Shown here piece after piece: positions 46,478 through 53,880 of a stretch of DNA of 64,000 bases. The position numbers were made by a program, and so were the translations under genes. The notes below the pieces were generated by a model, which had not been told where the DNA came from, made no database searches, and worked only from the letters and a program-made list of their open reading frames with translations. Origin of the DNA: Candidatus Latescibacterota bacterium. Lineage in GTDB: Bacteria; Latescibacterota; UBA2968; GCA-2709665. Location of the stretch: the NCBI GenBank assembly GCA_965222075.1, contig OZ244937.1, forward strand, positions 5,248,001 to 5,312,000, read 5' to 3'. Each line of letters opens with the position of its first letter. Positions within the stretch are counted from its first letter, which is position 1.

Positions 46478-46656
46478 GCCCCTTCTCTATTCAGATGAAT
46501 CAATCATCTCTCCTTTTACTATGCAAATATGGATTCCCTGCATGGCGTCTAATGTCTCACGGTTTGCTGATTCCGATATTCCGTTGCCAGGATTCCATAC
46601 TCGTGACAGACCGCCATGGCCGTTCATACCCGCATGCATCGCGAGAGAGATTCCGC

Positions 46657-47031
46657 TCAAACCCCTTCCCGGAAACGCGTGACGATGGATCGCGCACCGC
46701 TGATCAAGAATTCGTCATCGGTTCCGATTGCAAGAAATCGGAACCCTTGCTCGATGTATCTGAACGCCGAATCGGCATCCGCCGTGTACGCGACTCCGGG
46801 GACCACTCCGTGGCGCTCGCAGGCGTTGAGAACCTTTTGAAATGCCCGCTGCAGGTCGGGATTGTCGAAGTCGAGGTGGCTACCATCGACGGATGTGCTG
46901 CCGATATGCTCAATTTCGAGGGCTGCATCCCCGAAGACAGCGAGAAGTCCTCTCTTCTCAGCATCGTATTTGTGTCGCCACTTCGGGTCGAATTCTGACA
47001 ACTCCCATATGACTGTCTCATCCACTGGCAT
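46657..47031 (-). pseudogene. In-frame chimera: GrpB N-terminus plus HpcH/HpaI aldolase C-terminus
   Basis: FDPKW...IEHIGSTSV joined to FDNPDLQRAFQKVLNACERHG..PG...YIEQGFRFLAIGTD. Confidence 0.7.
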
Positions 47032-47085
47032 TTCTCACTGTCTGCGAATGTACGGAGATCGCTGAATCATTCGTCACCCAATTTC

Positions 47086-47177
47086 AGGTAACGTTCTCGC
47101 GGTTTGCGAACGCCGACAGGCGTTGCCGCAGGCCAAGGCGCCTGAAAGGCGGCGCAGCGAAAACCGTGCTGTTATCG
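47086..47177 (-). other. attC-like site 7
   Basis: AGGTAAC...GGTTTGCG...CGAAAACC...GTTATCG imperfect hairpin. Confidence 0.8.
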
Positions 47178-47190
47178 GAAGTAGACTCCA

Positions 47191-47958
47191 TTAGGCCTGC
47201 GCCGTCACAACTGGTTGAAAATAGCCAGACTGCTCAGGCGCATGCCAGACGATTTTCGTAAATCCGGCTGACTCCAGGGCCGAAGTGAGCTCGTTGCGTC
47301 TTATTGCCCTGTAGCGAGTCCTGGCCTCCTTCACTCGCCATCCACTCGATGCTTGGCTCATTATGAAAAGCCGGACTCGATAGGTATCTGATTCCTTGGA
47401 CCAGTCCCAGATCTGAAATGTTATTGCTCCTCGCTCGGGTACACCATCGAGATTCGGAGCCATAAACGATGGTCTTTCGGCGAGTAACCGATCGTAATCG
47501 CGAATACTGGCAACAAACCGTCCTTTGTCAGTCAGTACGTGCCGGATGCTTCGGAGAGCGAGAGTTAAATCTTCGTCAGTCAAAAGGTGCGGTAAGGAAT
47601 TGTCACAGCTGATCACGACATCGAATTTCTGGCCGAATACACATTCCAGCTCACGAACATCGGCAACAGCGAACCGTATGTTCAGCCCTCGCTTAGCTGC
47701 TTCTGATTTCGCCCTGGCAATCGCCTTCGGGCTAAGATCGGACGCGAAGACTTCGTATCCTCGTTGCGCCAAGCCAATTGCCTGGGTGCCTATTCCGCAT
47801 GAACAGTCCAGGACAACCGATGCATTCGCTGAAGACTCACATTGAATCAACTGATCCAGTGCATACGACTGCCGTTCGATTGCCGATTCCCAGTCCGCGT
47901 AAACGTGATGGTAATCAGCAGCTAAATCATCGTAAAAGCGTTTGACGGATTCGCTCAC
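47191..47958 (-). CDS. Class I SAM methyltransferase (cassette 7)
   Basis: VLDCSCGIG and DNSLPH motifs; GTG start at 47958. Confidence 0.85.
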   Translation of the reverse strand: MSESVKRFYDDLAADYHHVYADWESAIERQSYALDQLIQCESSANASVVLDCSCGIGTQAIGLAQRGYEVFASDLSPKAIARAKSEAAKRGLNIRFAVADVRELECVFGQKFDVVISCDNSLPHLLTDEDLTLALRSIRHVLTDKGRFVASIRDYDRLLAERPSFMAPNLDGVPERGAITFQIWDWSKESDTYRVRLFIMSQASSGWRVKEARTRYRAIRRNELTSALESAGFTKIVWHAPEQSGYFQPVVTAQA

Positions 47959-47987
47959 GTTGATGACTCTCTCAACGAGTCCATTTC

Positions 47988-48128
47988 CGATAACGTTCCC
48001 GGTGTGTGCGAACCTGCCGAGCGGGCGCGGCGGTTGCAACAGGGGTTTCGATTAGCAAGCGCCGTGACCGCGAAGGAAGGTTGGGCGATGGGGCGAATGC
48101 CCCAAAGCCGCAGCCGGTCGTATTAGCC
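47988..48128 (-). other. attC-like site 6 (long, degenerate core)
   Basis: CGATAAC...ATTAGCC with an inner CCGG..TGCG/CGCA.CCGG stem. Confidence 0.65.
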
Positions 48129-48186
48129 GTCCGAGCAGCCCACAGACTGCCCTTGCCAGGGTCGGCAAGGCCATCGTCTTTGACCT

Positions 48187-48744
48187 TCACGCTCTTCGAG
48201 TCTGTTTCATATCATGAGCGAATGGGTATAGTTCCCCGAAGTCCGCAGATTCTGGGCCAAATAGCTCTGCCGCTTGTCTGAAATGGACGGCCCGAACTTC
48301 CACAATCCTGCTATTCGGATCCGGATCAGCTCTGTCCTCGGTTTTTCGAACCACATCAGCCCACGATACGACTCGCACATGCTCTGGGTGCGGGAAGTGG
48401 GGCAACCTGGGGCGGTCGTTTCGAGAGACGCAGTAGTACATCCCTATCGGATGAAGTTCCCCCAGATTGCTTCTCGTTTCCTCCAATAGCTCGCGACGAC
48501 CAGCCTCCTCCCAATTCTCGTTGGGTTCGAGGGTGCCTCCCGGCAAGACCCATTTCCCGTTGGACCGCTTGGTCACGAGACAATGACTGTCGGAGACGAA
48601 AGGAATGATATAAGAGGAGCCACAAATAGTCGAAGCCAGTTCATTTTCGAATTTGCGGAAGTGGACATTGGGACGTAGTTGCCCATGCTCCTCACTCAGG
48701 GTGGGGTATTTCGAGATGAGCTTGTCGAACTGCGTACGGTCCAT
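48187..48744 (-). CDS. NUDIX hydrolase (cassette 6)
   Basis: LPGGTLEPNENWEEAGRRELLEET Nudix box. Confidence 0.85.
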   Translation of the reverse strand: MDRTQFDKLISKYPTLSEEHGQLRPNVHFRKFENELASTICGSSYIIPFVSDSHCLVTKRSNGKWVLPGGTLEPNENWEEAGRRELLEETRSNLGELHPIGMYYCVSRNDRPRLPHFPHPEHVRVVSWADVVRKTEDRADPDPNSRIVEVRAVHFRQAAELFGPESADFGELYPFAHDMKQTRRA

Positions 48745-48811
48745 GTTAAAGGCTACGTGTGGTTTTCTGGCGGCGCGTCCTGCGCCGCCCCTGTCTTGCG
48801 GGCTGCTTCGC

Positions 48812-48892
48812 GGCTAACGTATCGCCGTGCCCGAGCCGCGCAGCGGTTGCGCGAAGGGCGTAAGCCCGAAGCCGGGCACGGACGTGTTAGCC
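48812..48892 (-). other. attC-like site 5
   Basis: GGCTAAC..CCGTGCCCG...CGGGCACGG..GTTAGCC; very similar to 52200-52283. Confidence 0.85.
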
Positions 48893-48903
48893 GAAGTATG
48901 AAT

Positions 48904-49569
48904 TCACTTGAGGTTGCGTATTGTGCTCGGCAACTCGTCAAGATCGTCAACAACCGCATCCACAATCTCAGGCACCTCCCAGTACTCATCTCGCTTCCAA
49001 ATCGCTTTCATCCCGAAGGACTTGGCGCCCCGAACGTCGGCCTCCGGGTTGTCGCCAATCATGATAGCCTGATCTGGTGAGACGCCCAGGTTGTCGGTCG
49101 CACGACGGAAGATCTCCGCATCCGGTTTTGCGACCCCTTCTGCTTCCGAGATCAACATTGTGTCGAAATAGCGAGAGATTCCCAAACCATCAATCTTCGG
49201 CTGCTGCGAATCAACTCGCCCGTTCGTAACGAGCCCCATCTTTAAACCTTGTTGCCTGAGTATGGTAAGAGTCTGATGTGCCTTAGGAAACGGAACGCAT
49301 ATATGGGGAAAGTATGTCAGGAAGTCCTCCAGCAACCTCTGCCAAATACCGGGTGAGAGAGCAAAGTCGCGTTCAATGCTCCTAAACAGCCCCTCCTTCT
49401 CGGCGTGGCCATGTGCGTCCAACTCAATGACTCGCTCCATGTATTCGGCAAATGGAAGAGATTGAAGATCATTTGCTAGTCGTTCGACCTGAATATGCAG
49501 GTACACTCTAAGGCTACTGATCCGATCCAATAGCGTTCCGTCAAGATCGAAGAGCGCTGCTTGAAACAT
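48904..49569 (-). CDS. HAD-family hydrolase (cassette 5)
   Basis: FDLDGTL, VTNG, KPD and IGDNPEAD motifs. Confidence 0.9.
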   Translation of the reverse strand: MFQAALFDLDGTLLDRISSLRVYLHIQVERLANDLQSLPFAEYMERVIELDAHGHAEKEGLFRSIERDFALSPGIWQRLLEDFLTYFPHICVPFPKAHQTLTILRQQGLKMGLVTNGRVDSQQPKIDGLGISRYFDTMLISEAEGVAKPDAEIFRRATDNLGVSPDQAIMIGDNPEADVRGAKSFGMKAIWKRDEYWEVPEIVDAVVDDLDELPSTIRNLK

Positions 49570-49595
49570 TTGTACCTCCAGTCGGACTCCATTTC

Positions 49596-49665
49596 GGCTA
49601 ACGGTCTCGCGGGCTGCGAACCCGCGCAGCGGGTTGGTGCGGAGGCGCAGCCCGACGTGTTAGGT
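49596..49665 (-). other. attC-like site 4
   Basis: GGCTAAC..CGGGCTGCG...CGCAGCCCG..GTTAGGT. Confidence 0.85.
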
Positions 49666-49691
49666 GCAGTGGCATTCAGATTCGTGTCTGG

Positions 49692-50138
49692 CTATTTCAG
49701 GCTCTTCCGAAAGAAGACCTCACTTGCAGGACCCGTGGGAGTCCCTGTCAGAATACCGCAGTCTTCGAAACCCATATGGCGGTGCCATTTCTGAGGGTCC
49801 AATTCATCCAGCTGAGAGGAACTAAGTAGATATGTGAATCCCTTCTCTCGGAGATAACATTCTAGAAAACCAAGCATAGACCGCCCCACACCCTGTCTTT
49901 GATACTTCTTCAAGACTATGATCCCGCTGATGTAGGGCGCGCTATAGTGATGGCCCTGCCAGATGAACTGAAATTCCAGGACACCAACCGGCTCTCCATC
50001 CAATTCCGCAACGATAAACTCCTTTAGCCGGATCTTCGTTTCCACTACATCCACGGTTTCTATTGAAAGCGTATGCTTGCACCATTTGGCGTCCTCGTCC
50101 TTCGCAAACCTCACGACCGTGTCACTAGACCTTGTCAT
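49692..50138 (-). CDS. GNAT acetyltransferase (cassette 4)
   Basis: YQRQGVG and WHRHMGF motifs. Confidence 0.8.
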   Translation of the reverse strand: MTRSSDTVVRFAKDEDAKWCKHTLSIETVDVVETKIRLKEFIVAELDGEPVGVLEFQFIWQGHHYSAPYISGIIVLKKYQRQGVGRSMLGFLECYLREKGFTYLLSSSQLDELDPQKWHRHMGFEDCGILTGTPTGPASEVFFRKSLK

Positions 50139-50200
50139 GAAAGTACCAGCCTTTGTAAGAGATGGAGGACTTCGCCGAGAGGTCGAGACTGCGCCATTGC

Positions 50201-50298
50201 GCCTAACGTTCCCGCCACTTGCGAGCCCCGAGCTTGTCGAGGGGTTGCCGACAGGACAAGGCGCCGTAGGCGACGCAGCGCAAAACGCTGTGTTGGGC
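50201..50298 (-). other. attC-like site 3
   Basis: GCCTAAC...TTGCG...CGCAA...GTTGGGC. Confidence 0.75.
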
Positions 50299-50326
50299 GA
50301 AGGAGCACGTCTTTTAGGGTATCATC

Positions 50327-50551
50327 CTATGCTTCGAGAAACTCCTCTGTTGTTACCCCAGCTTGCTTCAAGATTGCAGACAAGGTTCCTTCCGGTAAAT
50401 CCCCAGGATGGTTGGGGATCGTCGTTCGGCACCGGGTAGCAGGATTCCACCAGATTTCATGGCTCCCTCGTGCATGCCGATCAAACTCAAATCCCAACCG
50501 TCTCAGTTTTCCAGTTATTTGTCGATAGGTGAAACCTGCAAGACGTCCCAT
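50327..50551 (-). CDS. hicA: HicA toxin
   Basis: LGFEFDRHARGSHEIW...IPNHPGDLPEGTLSAILKQAG. Confidence 0.9.
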   Translation of the reverse strand: MGRLAGFTYRQITGKLRRLGFEFDRHARGSHEIWWNPATRCRTTIPNHPGDLPEGTLSAILKQAGVTTEEFLEA

Positions 50552-50796
50552 CAGGCTCCTACCAGTATGTCCAGTTCAACAACCTCAGTATCCAGCGTTT
50601 GCAATCCTTCTGGGAGAGGATCACCGTGTTCACGGTAGGATTCAATCAGTTTTCGTGCCACATCCTGTGCAATCTCAGTTGTTTCGGCCACTGTTCTGCC
50701 TTGAGCAACTAAACCAGGAAAGCTATCCGAAGTAGCTAAAAATTGGCCGTTTTCAACTTTCTGCACTTGAAGATGCAATCTATATTCTTCTGACAC
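50551..50796 (-). CDS. hicB: HicB-like antitoxin
   Basis: FPGLVAQGRTVAET...EHGDPLP; translationally coupled to hicA. Confidence 0.85.
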   Translation of the reverse strand: MSEEYRLHLQVQKVENGQFLATSDSFPGLVAQGRTVAETTEIAQDVARKLIESYREHGDPLPEGLQTLDTEVVELDILVGA

Positions 50797-50863
50797 GGCT
50801 CATGCTCCTGTTTGGTGAATAAGGTTAGCTTTTTCGCGTCAACAAACCCTGAGAATATTGACG

Positions 50864-51259
50864 TTAAGTTTTTCTATGCATAACTACCTGTTGAGTAACC
50901 CGAAATTTGCAACTTTTATAGAGAGAGGTCAATTCGGGGTCACAAAATAAAGAGACGATATCGATATCAGCTAGTTCCTCAAGAAGTCGCCTGAGCACAG
51001 CTTTTGCAATACCTGTACGATGATCGGGGTGTACTGTTACATCTTCTATATAAGCACGGAAATGCCCGTCTAGCACCGCGCGCGCAAATCCGATCAAGTC
51101 CTCTTCCTTCCAAGCACCCACTGCAGGATTACGGTTAAGAACGTCAGTAATATCCTGTAGAGAACGCTCCGGACACCACTCATTGGCAGCATAAAGACGA
51201 CGTACAGCATCTGCCGGTATAGGATGCTCTTGATGAGTGCGAATCACGTAATTTACCAT
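50864..51259 (-). CDS. GNAT acetyltransferase (cassette 3)
   Basis: LIGFARA, AYIEDVTVHP and GIAK motifs. Confidence 0.8.
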   Translation of the reverse strand: MVNYVIRTHQEHPIPADAVRRLYAANEWCPERSLQDITDVLNRNPAVGAWKEEDLIGFARAVLDGHFRAYIEDVTVHPDHRTGIAKAVLRRLLEELADIDIVSLFCDPELTSLYKSCKFRVTQQVVMHRKT

Positions 51260-51314
51260 TTCAGCGCAGGTATTAATGGAAACCATGGTTGAACAAATAT
51301 TGGTTTGCTCTTTC

Positions 51315-51400
51315 GCCCAACGTTTCCGCGGGCTGCGAACCTGCGAACCAGGTTGGGTCGGAGGTGCGAATGCGCCGCAGTGCAAACTGATGTGTTAGCC
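51315..51400 (-). other. attC-like site 2
   Basis: GCCCAAC...CTGCG...CGCAG...GTTAGCC. Confidence 0.75.
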
Positions 51401-51421
51401 GAAGTCGATCTATTTCCAAGG

Positions 51422-52159
51422 TTACATTTTTCTGACTATGAAGTATGCACGTCTGCCCAGCTCATAGGGCTCGCAATCCAGTGACGAAAAAGTATCGCAC
51501 ACCTCGAAACCCACCTCGGAAAAGAGAAATGTCAACTCTCGAAACCCGTAGACCCGCATAGAGCTTATCTTCGTCTCGGAAATTCCGTTCGCAACCAAAG
51601 TCCATTCAGTATCGATCCGGCTCTCCACGTGTCGGTAGTTCGTGTCCTCCAGGACAACTGTTTCACCTGCTTTGCTCCAACCGCGGAACCGGAGTCTTGG
51701 GAGTATTGTTTCAGCGACGTTGGGAATATCCAGAGCAAACCTCGAACCAGTCTTGAGCGCTCGATGCACTGCCTCAAGGAATCGCCTATTTCCGTCGTCG
51801 TCGAAGTATCCGAAACTTCCCCAAAAACAGAATGCCGCATCGAATGTCTCAATCCAGGACAGATCCCTCATATCCGTCTCGACAAGCTCAAGATCAAGAT
51901 TCGCTTCTTGTGAAGCGGATTGCGCCTCTTGAAGAAGGACTGTCGTGATGTCAACGCCAGTTACTTTATAGCCTCTCTCAGCCAGCGGAATCGCCAATCT
52001 ACCATTGCCACACGGCACATCGAGAACCCGACACCCTGGCTTCAAATTGAGCGCGCGCACGAGAAAGTCTACCTCTTCTGAAGTACGCCCTGCTCGCGAG
52101 TTTCTTTGAACGTCGAGCCAGTTTCCCGCAAAAAAAGTGGTCCACCACTCAGTACTCAC
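51422..52159 (-). CDS. Class I SAM methyltransferase (cassette 2)
   Basis: VLDVPCGNGR and SFGYF motifs; GGAGG RBS before GTG. Confidence 0.85.
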   Translation of the reverse strand: MSTEWWTTFFAGNWLDVQRNSRAGRTSEEVDFLVRALNLKPGCRVLDVPCGNGRLAIPLAERGYKVTGVDITTVLLQEAQSASQEANLDLELVETDMRDLSWIETFDAAFCFWGSFGYFDDDGNRRFLEAVHRALKTGSRFALDIPNVAETILPRLRFRGWSKAGETVVLEDTNYRHVESRIDTEWTLVANGISETKISSMRVYGFRELTFLFSEVGFEVCDTFSSLDCEPYELGRRAYFIVRKM

Positions 52160-52199
52160 GTTTAACCTCCAATCTCGGGTCACTCCAACATTCGATTTC

Positions 52200-52283
52200 A
52201 GCTAACGTTTTCGCCGTGCCCGAACCGCGAAGCGGTTGGGCGAAGGGCCGTATGGCCCGTAGCCGGACACGGACGTGTTAACC
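52200..52283 (-). other. attC-like site 1
   Basis: AGCTAAC..CCGTGCCCG...CGGACACGG..GTTAACC. Confidence 0.85.
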
Positions 52284-52370
52284 GCAGTGGGCATGACACC
52301 AATGAAGCTCGCAAATCAAAATGAGTGCCAAACAGAAAACACGCCAAGAAACTACCCTGGAGATATTGCT

Positions 52371-52889
52371 TCACAAGGTAAAGGAAGTATGCTTTCTCCA
52401 CTTGCCGTTGCGCTCCATCATAAGCCAAACCTCTTCTGCGCGACTCTTCATCGGCAGGTATGATTCAGCATTCGATTGAAATTTCTCGACGATTGCTTCC
52501 AACGCAACTGCATCATCCGCATGTGCTACGGTAAGGTGAGGGTTGACGGAAGAATAAGCCCCTTTGTAGGGTGGGTGGTCCGGAAATTGATTTACCAGAG
52601 CTTGAGTCATTCTTTTGAACTCATTATCGGGCTCCGGATGCAAATAGAGGACACCTGGAAACCTACGCACCTCGACAAGGAAAAAGTCGAACGGATGGAA
52701 ACTCTGAATCACCTCCCGGACTTCAATGACACTGTTTCTGGTGATGGCCTCTCGATCCAGAAACGGATAGAGTAGAGTGATATGGGCAGGGATCCCCGCC
52801 TTGGCTGCGGGATCGTATCTACTTCGATACGCCCCAACCAATTTCTCCGCCTTGGGCACCGGAATTAGGATTGCCGATTCGTCTGGCAT
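52371..52889 (-). CDS. 2'-5' RNA ligase family (2H phosphoesterase) protein (cassette 1)
   Basis: Two HxT motifs: AHITL and PHLTV. Confidence 0.85.
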   Translation of the reverse strand: MPDESAILIPVPKAEKLVGAYRSRYDPAAKAGIPAHITLLYPFLDREAITRNSVIEVREVIQSFHPFDFFLVEVRRFPGVLYLHPEPDNEFKRMTQALVNQFPDHPPYKGAYSSVNPHLTVAHADDAVALEAIVEKFQSNAESYLPMKSRAEEVWLMMERNGKWRKHTSFTL

Positions 52890-52927
52890 TTTGCGAAATC
52901 ACTGGATGGAAACATCTTACCCATTGC

Positions 52928-52965
52928 GGTTAACTACGGGATTACCGAACAGTTACGGTAATACG
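52928..52965 (-). other. attI-like site
   Basis: On the minus strand, ...GTTCGGTAATCCCGTA-GTTAACC opens cassette 1 with no attC hairpin upstream; it lies next to the integrase remnant. Confidence 0.6.
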
Positions 52966-53014
52966 CGCCAGATCTGAGGATTTCCGAACGTTCGGGAACA
53001 TTTTGTTAATATTG

Positions 53015-53399
53015 GTTTTTGCAAGCCCGGTCAAACGCTTTCTGTACCGACCGCCCGGTCACCCGGTCTGGCGCCCGGGAACAGCCATGTTCGGGGTTGA
53101 TATTGGCGCCTGTAGTCTTGAACCGCCTTCTGTGCGACTGTGGAGAGCATCGTGTAACGATCCTTCCGGTGCTTGCCCTGGCGGATATGGAGCAGTTTTC
53201 GATCCCCGTCGATGTCTTCGACCTTCAACCGGACCACTTCACCCAGCCGAAGGCCTCCGGAATAGGTCAACAGCATGATCGCCTGGTGCTTCAGGTTTTC
53301 TACTGCATCCAGTAACCGAAGCACTTCTGCCCGGCTCAACACAGTGGGCAATTTGTGCTCCTTTTTCGGACGGGGCAGGTTTTCAAGAGGATATTCCAT
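53015..53399 (-). pseudogene. intI: Integron-type/XerD-like tyrosine recombinase remnant
   Basis: RPKKEHKLPTVLS, YSGGLRLGE, GKHRKDR and WLFPG, then frameshifted RSVQKAFDRAC. The N-terminal domain and the HxLRH/Tyr region are missing. Confidence 0.8.
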
Positions 53400-53880
53400 T
53401 GAGGTCTTCTCTCGGCATTGCGGCTGAAAAAAGTGGATTGGCTTTGCTTTCAAACAAATCCCGTGCCGTAGAGACCGCTAACGGAGAACAATAAATGAAC
53501 CTGTTGTGAAATTAGTGTCAGATGGGAGAATATCCTTTTTTAAACAGACCTTTCAGGTTGCTGATTTGTTTCAAAACAGACCGTTCAACGCATTCAGAAA
53601 GTACCATATCCGAAGCGCTGAGAACGTGAACCTATTGTATTTTCAGGTCGTCGTATTGCCCCAATAAGGCGCTCACGGGATGGCGGAAGAGGGGCTGTGG
53701 GCGCGTTATCAAGCGCAGACGGTGATACAGGCGGCTCCGGCGGGTGTAGAGGCGTAAGCGCTGACTGAAGTAAAGGGTTGACCGGGGGTGCCCTGCAATA
53801 TATATTTTTCATGACCCCCGTGTTGAGGAACGGTGTCAGTCCGGCGATAATGAACCGATAGCACGCAGAAGGAGCCACCA

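Follow-up and report, generated by a model that had tools for sequence, protein, structure and literature searches.

The window analyzed here, a stretch of 64,000 nucleotides from a Candidatus Latescibacterota genome (contig OZ244937.1), carries an integron-type array of seven cassettes at 47.1 to 52.9 kb on the minus strand, with a possible eighth cassette unit to its left. All cassette genes lie on the minus strand. Seven attC sites of 70 to 141 nt were located (expected class: palindromes of about 57 to 141 nt, RYYYAAC...GTTRRRY). Each is given below for the plus strand, which is the bottom strand and runs from the AAC-ending box to the GTT-starting box, together with its score in the attC model R1.

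Cassette A (52206..52933, minus) carries a 2'-5' RNA ligase-like gene and has its attC at 52200..52283 (plus; 85.8 bits); its arms, 52277-52291 and 52920-52934, pair over 15 bp with a G-T at position 11. Cassette B (51321..52205, minus) encodes a methyltransferase, with its attC at 51315..51400 (plus; 75 bits) and arms at 51394-51408 and 52192-52206 that pair over 15 bp with one mismatch (position 7) and G-T at 11. A GNAT gene, a HicA-like toxin gene, and a partner open reading frame (ORF) make up cassette C (50207..51320, minus; attC 50201..50298, plus, 67.5 bits), whose arms at 50292-50307 and 51306-51321 form 16 bp with G-T at 11. Cassette D (49602..50206, minus), with another GNAT gene, has its attC at 49596..49665 (plus; 59.3 bits) and 15-bp arms at 49659-49673 and 50193-50207 with G-T at both 7 and 11. 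The HAD hydrolase cassette E (48818..49601, minus; attC 48812..48892, plus, 79.1 bits) has arms of 12 bp at 48886-48897 and 49591-49602, again with G-T at 11. Cassette F (47994..48817, minus) is a NUDIX cassette with a long and degenerate attC at 47988..48128 (plus; 30 bits), in which ATT replaces GTT in the box, and with interrupted pairing between arms at about 48122-48140 and 48799-48818. Cassette G (47092..47993, minus) encodes a methyltransferase; its attC is at 47086..47177 (plus; 64 bits), and its arms at 47171-47188 and 47977-47994 pair over 18 bp with one mismatch and G-T at 11.

The first-pass annotation had listed six pairs of cassette ends. All 12 strings were located, the left ones starting at 52277, 51394, 50292, 49659, 48886, and 47171 and the right ones terminating, as claimed, at 52934, 52206, 51321, 50207, 49602, and 47994. 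In six of six pairs, position 11 of the GTT-side arm is a G on the plus strand, with T opposite. The NUDIX cassette had been called a longer, more degenerate version, and its pairing is indeed longer but interrupted. The end sequences are therefore real as cassette features, but the units measured from arm to arm omit the attC core, and the borders defined by the crossover differ from them. The 12-mer at 48886 occurs twice, being also the prefix of the string at 51394, and is the only repeated string of 12. A copy of cassette G with 83% identity is present in another array of a relative (G020), and the homology stops at the cassette borders. Between the two copies of this single shared cassette, arm positions 4 and 13 have changed, in neither case with a compensating change.

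Next to the array, at 53031..53453 on the minus strand, lies the remnant of an IntI-like tyrosine recombinase gene that lacks the IntI-specific insertion and matches residues 132 to 268 of a 333-amino-acid relative. The remnant is frameshifted and 140 amino acids long, without the N-terminal part and without the C-terminal catalytic His-x-x-Arg, His, and Tyr. Since this gene is dead, nothing at the locus acts on the array now. The source genome has broken recombinase copies only, and its best match to the integrase model TIGR02249 scored 93 bits against a cut-off of 265 bits. The attI-like side of the first junction, at 52934..53004 (no strand assigned), comprises about 70 nt that are conserved in six other genomes. 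The distance from this junction to the 3' end of the recombinase gene is 131 to 146 nt in five genomes and 97 nt in the window; in G020 it is 287 nt, and the gene is truncated there. All seven first cassettes at the shared junction differ, and three copies within one genome (G007) have a common junction followed by three different first cassettes. A second conserved junction serves the divergent subclade.

To describe the cassette ends in a larger set, 185 candidate own-end pairs were collected from the source genome and 10 relatives, giving 172 unique pairs. In 104 of these adjacent pairs the first cassette bases complement the cassette's own R'' box at all 7 positions; the remainder includes pairs that span a probably undetected attC. 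The AAC and GTT triplets were exact in 131 of 165 attC sites of the relatives. The final set of 100 unique cassettes has a fully paired 7-nt box with exact GTT and AAC; it was thus selected on box pairing, and the related genomes are not independent samples.

The claim that the ends covary beyond the 7-bp R box was borne out in this set. The Watson-Crick frequencies at positions 9 to 17 were.86,.59,.02,.84,.79,.76,.74,.61, and.51 with the cassette's own end and.35,.31,.02,.49,.30,.36,.29,.27, and.27 with non-own partners. Over positions 9, 10, and 12 to 16, 519 of 700 pairs were Watson-Crick. Shuffled partners averaged 240 (maximum, 282), and none of 5,000 shuffles reached the observed value. 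The median own-end stem was 16 bp with one mismatch allowed. The fixed G-T at position 11 was also upheld, being present in 80 of 100 cassettes, with a Watson-Crick pair in 2 of 100. Both bases are individually conserved (G on the 3' arm in 83/100, T on the 5' arm in 95/100), and G-T occurred with 79% of non-own partners, so chimeric sites within the array have the wobble too. The stem therefore combines a G8-C8 pair and a position-11 G-T that are fixed in sequence with positions 9, 10, and 12 to 16 that are cassette specific and covary. In 88 of the 100 cassettes the longest ORF is a top-strand one, opposite the strand with the G-T, as the earlier placement of the wobble on the strand opposite the genes had stated.

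In predicted folds, the bottom strand was more stable than the top strand in 93 of 100 cassettes (mean difference, 4.3 kcal/mol). Compared with the array context, the circular form gained stability in 99 of 100 (mean, 9.1 kcal/mol), in line with the outer stem proposed on the excised circle's bottom strand, a stem that arises only if the two ends of one cassette are joined. For the folded structure of attC, 88.2% of cells were paired, compared with 70.8% in shuffles, and none of 500 shuffles reached the observed value; 23 of 27 pairs had changed on both sides. In helix 2, an inner helix, changes on both sides were found for 10 of 11 pairs, and 92.9% of cells were paired (0 of 500 shuffles as high). 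The alignment behind these counts was fitted to the model and thus leans toward the structure. In the consensus fold, 4 nt bulge out of the 5' arm and 1 nt out of the 3' arm. These bulges alone, without the wobble, could be the source of strand asymmetry.

Contrary to the suggestion of the first-pass annotation, an extension of the pairing past the R box is not in itself a special trait of these arrays. Self-pairing past 7 nt, to 9 to 11 consecutive nucleotides, is described for most cassettes in Bouvier et al. 2009 (PMC2727003). The R1 model could not serve for our own comparison, as it yielded only 2 weak hits when applied to 840,162 bases flanking canonical IntI genes (63 sources), and a separate generic attC scanner was used. 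A version based on unconstrained folding was dropped: it missed the sites at 47086-47177 and 52200-52283, gave no correct prediction at 47988-48128 (the NUDIX site), set one boundary wrongly, and produced false matches. The replacement used a fold that forces the AAC-GTT pairing and still reported about one site per kilobase on either side of IntI genes. The comparison was therefore restricted to adjacent sites with complementary box positions 4 to 7, of which 49 were found against 1.4 expected. Canonical loci were scanned on both sides of the IntI gene, and most arrays lay downstream of it.

The 32 cassettes adjoining canonical IntI genes had a median stem of 11 bp, and two of four class 1 cassettes paired over 12 bp and two over 7. 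The extension is thus shared with classical cassettes, but the G-T at position 11 is rare in them (6%, n = 32). Canonical arrays also often have a second G-T, located just inside the box (17/32); wobbles near the R box are not unique to the present system. Like canonical attC sites, the sites studied here are imperfect palindromes between an AAC-ending and a GTT-starting box, and the crossover inside the R box makes the first bases of a cassette complementary to its own R'' box. They differ in the median stem of 16 bp, the fixed G-C at position 8, and the fixed G-T at position 11 (80% compared with 6%), and their model, R1, had no more than the 2 weak hits given above near canonical IntI genes.

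The recombinase family associated with these arrays lacks the IntI-specific insertion, as had been proposed. It can be aligned over its full length to IntI1 and to a canonical IntI, and the catalytic residues (Arg, Lys, His-x-x-Arg, His, and Tyr) are all retained, but about 31 plus 10 residues of the insertion are missing from the array-linked family. At the N terminus, full-length relatives are extended by about 90 residues that are absent from IntI. The family scored below the cut-offs for IntI (TIGR02249, 214 to 241 against 265 bits; NF011946, 140 to 171 against 435) and for Xer (XerC, 173 to 194 against 335; XerD, 168 to 186 against 330); with XerA_Arch the scores of 215 to 219 were just below the cut-off of 220. 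In a quick tree, the recombinase grouped with IntI against the two Xer proteins of the genome and formed a separate group next to the sampled IntI rather than within them. More than 7,362 homologues were found at E ≤ 1e-40, including ones from Clostridia and Dehalococcoidia.

At 22 of 29 recombinase loci, an R1-type attC lay no more than about 6.5 kb away, its geometry being consistent; there was one further weak case, and no R1 attC was found at the other 6 of the 29. The recombinase lies at the array head beside the attI-like junction, in a co-directional or divergent geometry, and the arrays headed by it have up to tens of attC sites. Among 41 related genomes, R1 attC sites occurred in 28 and a canonical IntI above the curated cut-off in 2; 10 had arrays but no recombinase at E ≤ 1e-40. 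Arrays of a second family in the class had the G-T at position 11 in 12 of 16 cases. Three metagenome contigs of low GC content (30 to 39%) had stems of 15 to 19 bp downstream of recombinase homologues; read on the gene strand, position 11 is A-C in these stems. With our scanner, an array was found at only 3 of 32 metagenome recombinase loci, with weak R1 matches at 4, so most members of this very large family may do something else.

The wobble is probably a strand-choice or recognition feature of attC for an IntI-like integrase without the I2-containing insertion. The cassettes appear to have terminal inverted repeats at opposite ends because the crossover falls inside the R-box stem of their own attC; the two ends of a cassette are the two halves of that stem. 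The crossover lies within TAAC, by analogy between AA and C on the plus strand, and being inside the stem it moves the 5' half to the opposite end of the cassette upon integration. Once the bottom (plus) strand of the excised circle folds, the halves would pair in a stem of about 16 bp, compared with the 9 to 11 bp of canonical integrons, and this folded single strand is the likely substrate. The counterpart of the wobble on the top strand is a C-A mismatch, so the bottom-strand hairpin is favored. We propose that the wobble delimits, on the outer side, the R arm to which the recombinase binds and contributes to strand choice, and that the acting enzyme may be the IntI-like integrase without the insertion through which extrahelical bases are read by canonical IntI.

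Other explanations were weighed against this one. The bases at positions 8, 11, and 12 might be sequence contacts of the recombinase on double-stranded DNA, with the G-T of the hairpin having no function of its own. With each insertion, attI gains its R arm from the start of the incoming cassette, and the A of the R' arm and G of the R'' arm at position 11 would then reflect different arm roles, as with XerC and XerD arms. The individual conservation of the bases (T 95/100, G 83/100) and the 79% of non-own pairings with G-T agree with such contacts, and an enzyme without the structure-reading insertion fits a more sequence-specific, Xer-like mode. However, positions 9, 10, and 12 to 16 are unconserved and yet pair specifically with the own end (0/5,000), which is unexplained without folding; the inner helices covary too, and either purine would serve at position 11, yet the arms are biased oppositely. 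We consider this explanation unlikely.

Less likely again, the repeat and the wobble may be neutral relics of cassette birth or common ancestry that no enzyme uses, for example of a templated hairpin at cassette birth followed by biased C-to-T change. A cassette-specific complement of 5 to 9 bp arises more easily by templating than by selection on random sequence, many arrays are without an intact recombinase, and the origin of cassettes is called an unsolved question in Cury et al. 2016. Against neutrality, the wobble is kept by 80 of 100 cassettes whose genes are unrelated, by 12 of 16 in the second family, and on contigs of 30 to 39% GC, while the neighboring positions remain Watson-Crick; decay would not fix one position over that range. 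Finally, the top-strand A at position 11 could belong to an ATG start or a short upstream ORF, making the wobble a by-product of translation. An ATG does occupy top-strand positions 11 to 13 in 41 of 100 cassettes, and in cassette D it opens a 20-codon frame whose TGA overlaps the ATG of the gene. The main ORF begins at position 11 in only 6 of the 41, however, the frames that start there having mostly 2 to 38 codons, and A is found in 95 of 100 cassettes regardless of a following TG, with the G on the other arm unexplained. This very improbable explanation is largely refuted.

More tentatively, the arrays may be a separate and widespread class of integrons whose integrase never had or lost I2. 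A longer R arm with a more defined sequence would then compensate, its G-T at position 11 serving for identity and strand choice. By definition, the window array and most arrays of the relatives would be assigned to CALINs (at least two attC sites and no IntI nearby). They differ from the CALINs of Cury et al. 2016 in that an insertion-less recombinase stands, with a conserved junction, at the head of arrays that reach tens of sites. That study counted only four recombinases intermediate between IntI and Xer, each with fewer than three attC sites, and concluded that recombinases without the insertion near attC are not integron integrases. The IntI-specific insertion is considered necessary for attC recombination by Cury et al. 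2016 and, as cited by later authors, by Messier and Roy 2001.

The window differs from a complete integron in having no adjacent integrase with the IntI-specific domain. Integrons whose integrase is co-oriented with the cassettes (the "inverted" group) exist, and their enzyme is a canonical IntI. The window array likewise shares its strand with the recombinase gene and follows the 3' end of that gene, as do the arrays at most of the canonical IntI loci scanned.

R-box pairing beyond 7 nt is known already; the stem length and the fixed wobble are new. In the titles and abstracts searched, no fixed wobble outside the R box and no attC-linked integrase without the additional domain was described. 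Nor do the papers searched contain a non-Watson-Crick pair whose spacing from the crossover is fixed, or a link between such a pair and an insertion-less IntI-like recombinase, here present at array heads in several families of one phylum and on unrelated low-GC contigs. If the interpretation is true, a share of the many orphan attC clusters now counted as CALINs would in fact be whole integrons whose integrase has gone unrecognized, and the recombinase family would be a natural test of how single-strand recombination evolves from Xer-like enzymes. A working counter-example to the insertion requirement would alter the detection of integrons and CALINs and would supply a simpler pair of enzyme and site for the study of strand choice in structure-specific recombination.

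On the - strand of the window, between 46.5 and 53.5 kb, lie genes for a 2'-5' RNA ligase-like protein, two methyltransferases, two GNAT acetyltransferases, a HicA-like toxin with a partner ORF, a HAD hydrolase, and a NUDIX hydrolase. The genes are separated by imperfect palindromes of 70 to 141 nt, and in each of these, read on the + strand, the first box ends in AAC and the last box starts with GTT. A covariance model trained on six of the window's sites (R1) gave seven matches in the window and 56 in the whole 5.36-Mb genome, where they are grouped into several arrays. The feature in the window is an integron-type cassette array. The cassette at 47092-47993 is found again, at 83% identity, in another genome, where it belongs to a different array; the homology stops at the cassette borders.

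The first-pass annotation had quoted twelve cassette-end strings, all of which were present at the coordinates claimed, and had proposed that each cassette forms an outer stem on the bottom strand upon excision. The crossover falls inside the conserved TAAC and, by analogy with known integrons, was taken to lie between AA and C on the + strand. Hence one cassette comprises the attC core together with the arm on the GTT side, while the arm preceding the AAC box is part of the next cassette, so that a cassette's own two arms lie at its opposite ends and are joined only in the excised circle. Sites circularised in silico folded into a continuous outer stem for 7/7 window cassettes. The circularised form was also much more stable than the in-array form, as in cassette A (-36.9 and -22.9 kcal/mol, respectively). 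The observation behind the proposal is confirmed, and its interpretation is partly supported.

One cassette contains three ORFs between two attC sites: a GNAT gene and, at 50327-50796, the HicA-like toxin (65.9 bits in Pfam) together with the 81-aa ORF that overlaps it on the upstream side. Beyond the last detected attC, within 46500-47091, a 124-aa ORF (46657-47031, - strand) has a normal 5' arm at its upstream end, with T at position 11 (positions are base pairs of the own-end stem, of which the 7-nt R box takes 1 to 7). No attC of its own was found for this ORF by R1. A short degenerate AAT...GTT palindrome, seen by eye near 46545-46595, may be where the array ends in decayed form. In the largest array of the genome (G000:C1:3457526-3470103), sites and arms recur every 10,891 bp: several cassettes were duplicated together as one tandem segment rather than moved singly.

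To quantify own-end pairing, R1 sites were gathered from the window's genome and 20 stretches of 10 related genomes. The 185 candidate pairs of adjacent sites comprised 172 unique ones; all seven box positions were paired in 104, and 100 of these had exact GTT and AAC. The 68 pairs lacking full box pairing, which probably include missed sites as well as decayed ones, were excluded. Covariation past the 7-bp box, as suggested from the window alone, was borne out in the 100 cassettes: the Watson-Crick fractions at positions 9 to 17 were.86,.59,.02,.84,.79,.76,.74,.61, and.51 for own ends versus.35,.31,.02,.49,.30,.36,.29,.27, and.27 for non-own partners. None of 5000 partner shuffles attained the observed pairing at nonconserved positions. 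The own arms of a cassette pair and covary, which recognition purely by double-strand sequence does not explain. The inner attC helices showed strong covariation too, and the median stem length was 16 bp with one mismatch tolerated.

Position 8 was G-C in 96% of the 100 cassettes. The G-T pair noticed earlier at position 11 was fixed, being present in 80/100, with Watson-Crick pairs in 2 and other combinations in 18; taken individually, G occupied the GTT-side arm in 83/100 and T the opposite arm in 95/100. The pattern was the same in arrays from another family within that class: of 27 adjacent pairs, 16 were fully box-paired, and 12 of the 16 had G-T at position 11. Their conservation across GC contents of 30 to 65% makes it unlikely that these features are neutral leftovers from the birth of cassettes. 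A start-codon signal at position 11 was also considered and was rejected, as the main ORF starts there in only 6 of the 41 cassettes with ATG at this place.

The stem extension itself is already known in general terms. Bouvier et al. (2009, PMC2727003) describe self-pairing past the 7-nt boxes, over 9 to 11 consecutive nt, in most cassettes. For comparison, 80 loci with canonical IntI genes were searched with a purpose-made attC scanner, which gave 352 adjacent site pairs; box positions 4 to 7 were complementary in 49 of these versus 1.4 expected by chance. The 32 strictly adjacent pairs had Watson-Crick fractions of.94,.84,.56,.62,.50, and.22 at positions 8 to 13. In four class 1 cassettes taken from plasmid records, pairing covered 12 bp (aadA2 and aac(6')-Ib) or 7 bp (ereA2 and aac(6')-IIc). 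Thus, extension as such is ordinary in canonical cassettes too; the length seen here and the fixed wobble are not: the 32 canonical pairs had a median stem of 11 bp and G-T at position 11 in 6%. A second G-T pair just within the box was found in 90/100 sites here and in 17/32 canonical sites, indicating that it is not specific to the present system. In 99/100 cassettes, predicted folding was more stable for the excised circle than for the site within the array (mean difference, 9.1 kcal/mol); the corresponding figures for canonical cassettes were 19/32 and 1.7 kcal/mol. Predicted folding also favoured the bottom over the top strand in 93/100 (mean difference, 4.3 kcal/mol).

The recombinase ORF next to the array (53031-53453, - strand) is a remnant. 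It matched the Pfam catalytic domain over the first 100 positions only, runs on for a few residues in another frame, and ends before the catalytic His-x-x-Arg, His, and Tyr; the enzyme is dead in this genome. Four remnants of the insertion-less recombinase and no canonical IntI were found in the window's genome. The suggestion that the integrase lacks I2 held for the full-length relatives, which are IntI-like throughout, minus about 31 + 10 residues at the IntI-specific insertion. These relatives missed the curated cutoffs for IntI (214-241 versus 265) and XerA_Arch (215-219 versus 220) and fell far below those for XerC and XerD. In a quick tree with a narrow IntI sample, the family was placed beside the sampled IntI and was separate from the two Xer proteins of this genome (SH-aLRT support: family, 93; IntI, 99). 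Full-length relatives (P0001, P0002, P0029, and P0014) begin with about 90 additional residues that contain a conserved GRRW...P..K.W..P motif but match nothing in Pfam. This N-terminal stretch may be an extra DNA-binding domain; it is absent from the copies in genomes G018, G002, G003, and G007.

The family is very large, with more than 7362 homologues at E<=1e-40, named by their sources as tyrosine recombinase, XerD, or 'site-specific tyrosine recombinase/integron integrase'; one relative, at 97% identity, is of the full-length, 376-aa type. The recombinase was found in 29/168 genomes of the phylum as sampled. Among 41 related genomes, R1 sites were detected in 28, the recombinase (E<=1e-40) in 10, and canonical IntI above the cutoff in 2. 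Separately, 29 recombinase loci with flanks were examined: R1 sites lay in consistent geometry within about 6.5 kb at 22 of these, one more had a weak match, and six had none. Two geometries tracked protein subclades: the array either shares the gene's strand and lies past its 3' end, which is the arrangement in the window, or is divergent from it. In five genomes with longer gene copies, a conserved sequence follows the point of first-cassette joining, 131 to 146 nt from the recombinase 3' end. The same junction occurs at other distances in the window and in genome G020, in both of which the gene is truncated. The first cassette at this junction was different in each of seven genomes. In the divergent subclade, a separate junction is conserved 240 to 290 nt upstream of the gene, and first cassettes differ there again.

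A 12-bp perfect palindrome with AACGTT separates the attI-like junction of the window from its recombinase gene (within 52975-53004) and is also seen at loci L019, L122, L131, and L014. It is conserved in five genomes, perfect over 18 bp in some, and may serve as a terminator or as a binding site. Genome G007 (loci L007 and L123-L127) has six near-identical 314-aa recombinase copies, five of which adjoin arrays; in three, the junction sequence is identical and lies 1489 nt from the gene, yet each has a different first cassette. At locus L128/L030 (G004:C1:2492000-2510000), an insertion-less family gene lies about 370 nt downstream of a canonical IntI gene (464 bits). This tandem occurs twice in genome G004, and the second gene is present as three identical copies. 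The sole cassette pair found downstream at L128/L030 has a canonical-type stem of 9 bp, with a mismatch at position 10 and without G-T at position 11. In an Acidobacteriota MAG (L092, 14389-16955), an insertion-less family gene lies 3.5 kb past a canonical IntI gene, inside a unit flanked by two attC-like sites. Pairing between the ends of this unit covers 16 bp and includes G-T at position 11, the wobble being on the recombinase's own strand, and the recombinase gene itself may be in a cassette-like unit.

Beyond the phylum, 32 metagenome contigs carrying homologues of 38 to 55% identity were scanned. R1 gave four weak matches on these contigs, and the purpose-made attC scanner gave three own-end pairs versus 0.13 expected by chance. 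All three lay downstream of the recombinase gene, on contigs of 30 to 39% GC, with stems of 15 to 19 bp and the overall architecture of the window sites; their position 11 reads A-C on the gene strand, which corresponds to G-T on the bottom strand. Most of the 32 contigs had no hit with R1 or the scanner; the link between recombinase and array may therefore be restricted to part of the family, or the tools may be blind to other site types.

Against the literature searched, what is new is the fixed wobble, the longer stem, and the linkage of both to an insertion-less IntI-like integrase. The fixed G-C at position 8 and G-T at position 11, present with any partner, would supply a constant, longer R arm to the enzyme. 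On the top strand, the counterpart of the wobble is a C-A mismatch, which would aid correct strand choice by an enzyme without the I2 region. The bottom strand of the excised circle would be the preferred substrate, and with such a preference capture at attI would be favoured over excision.
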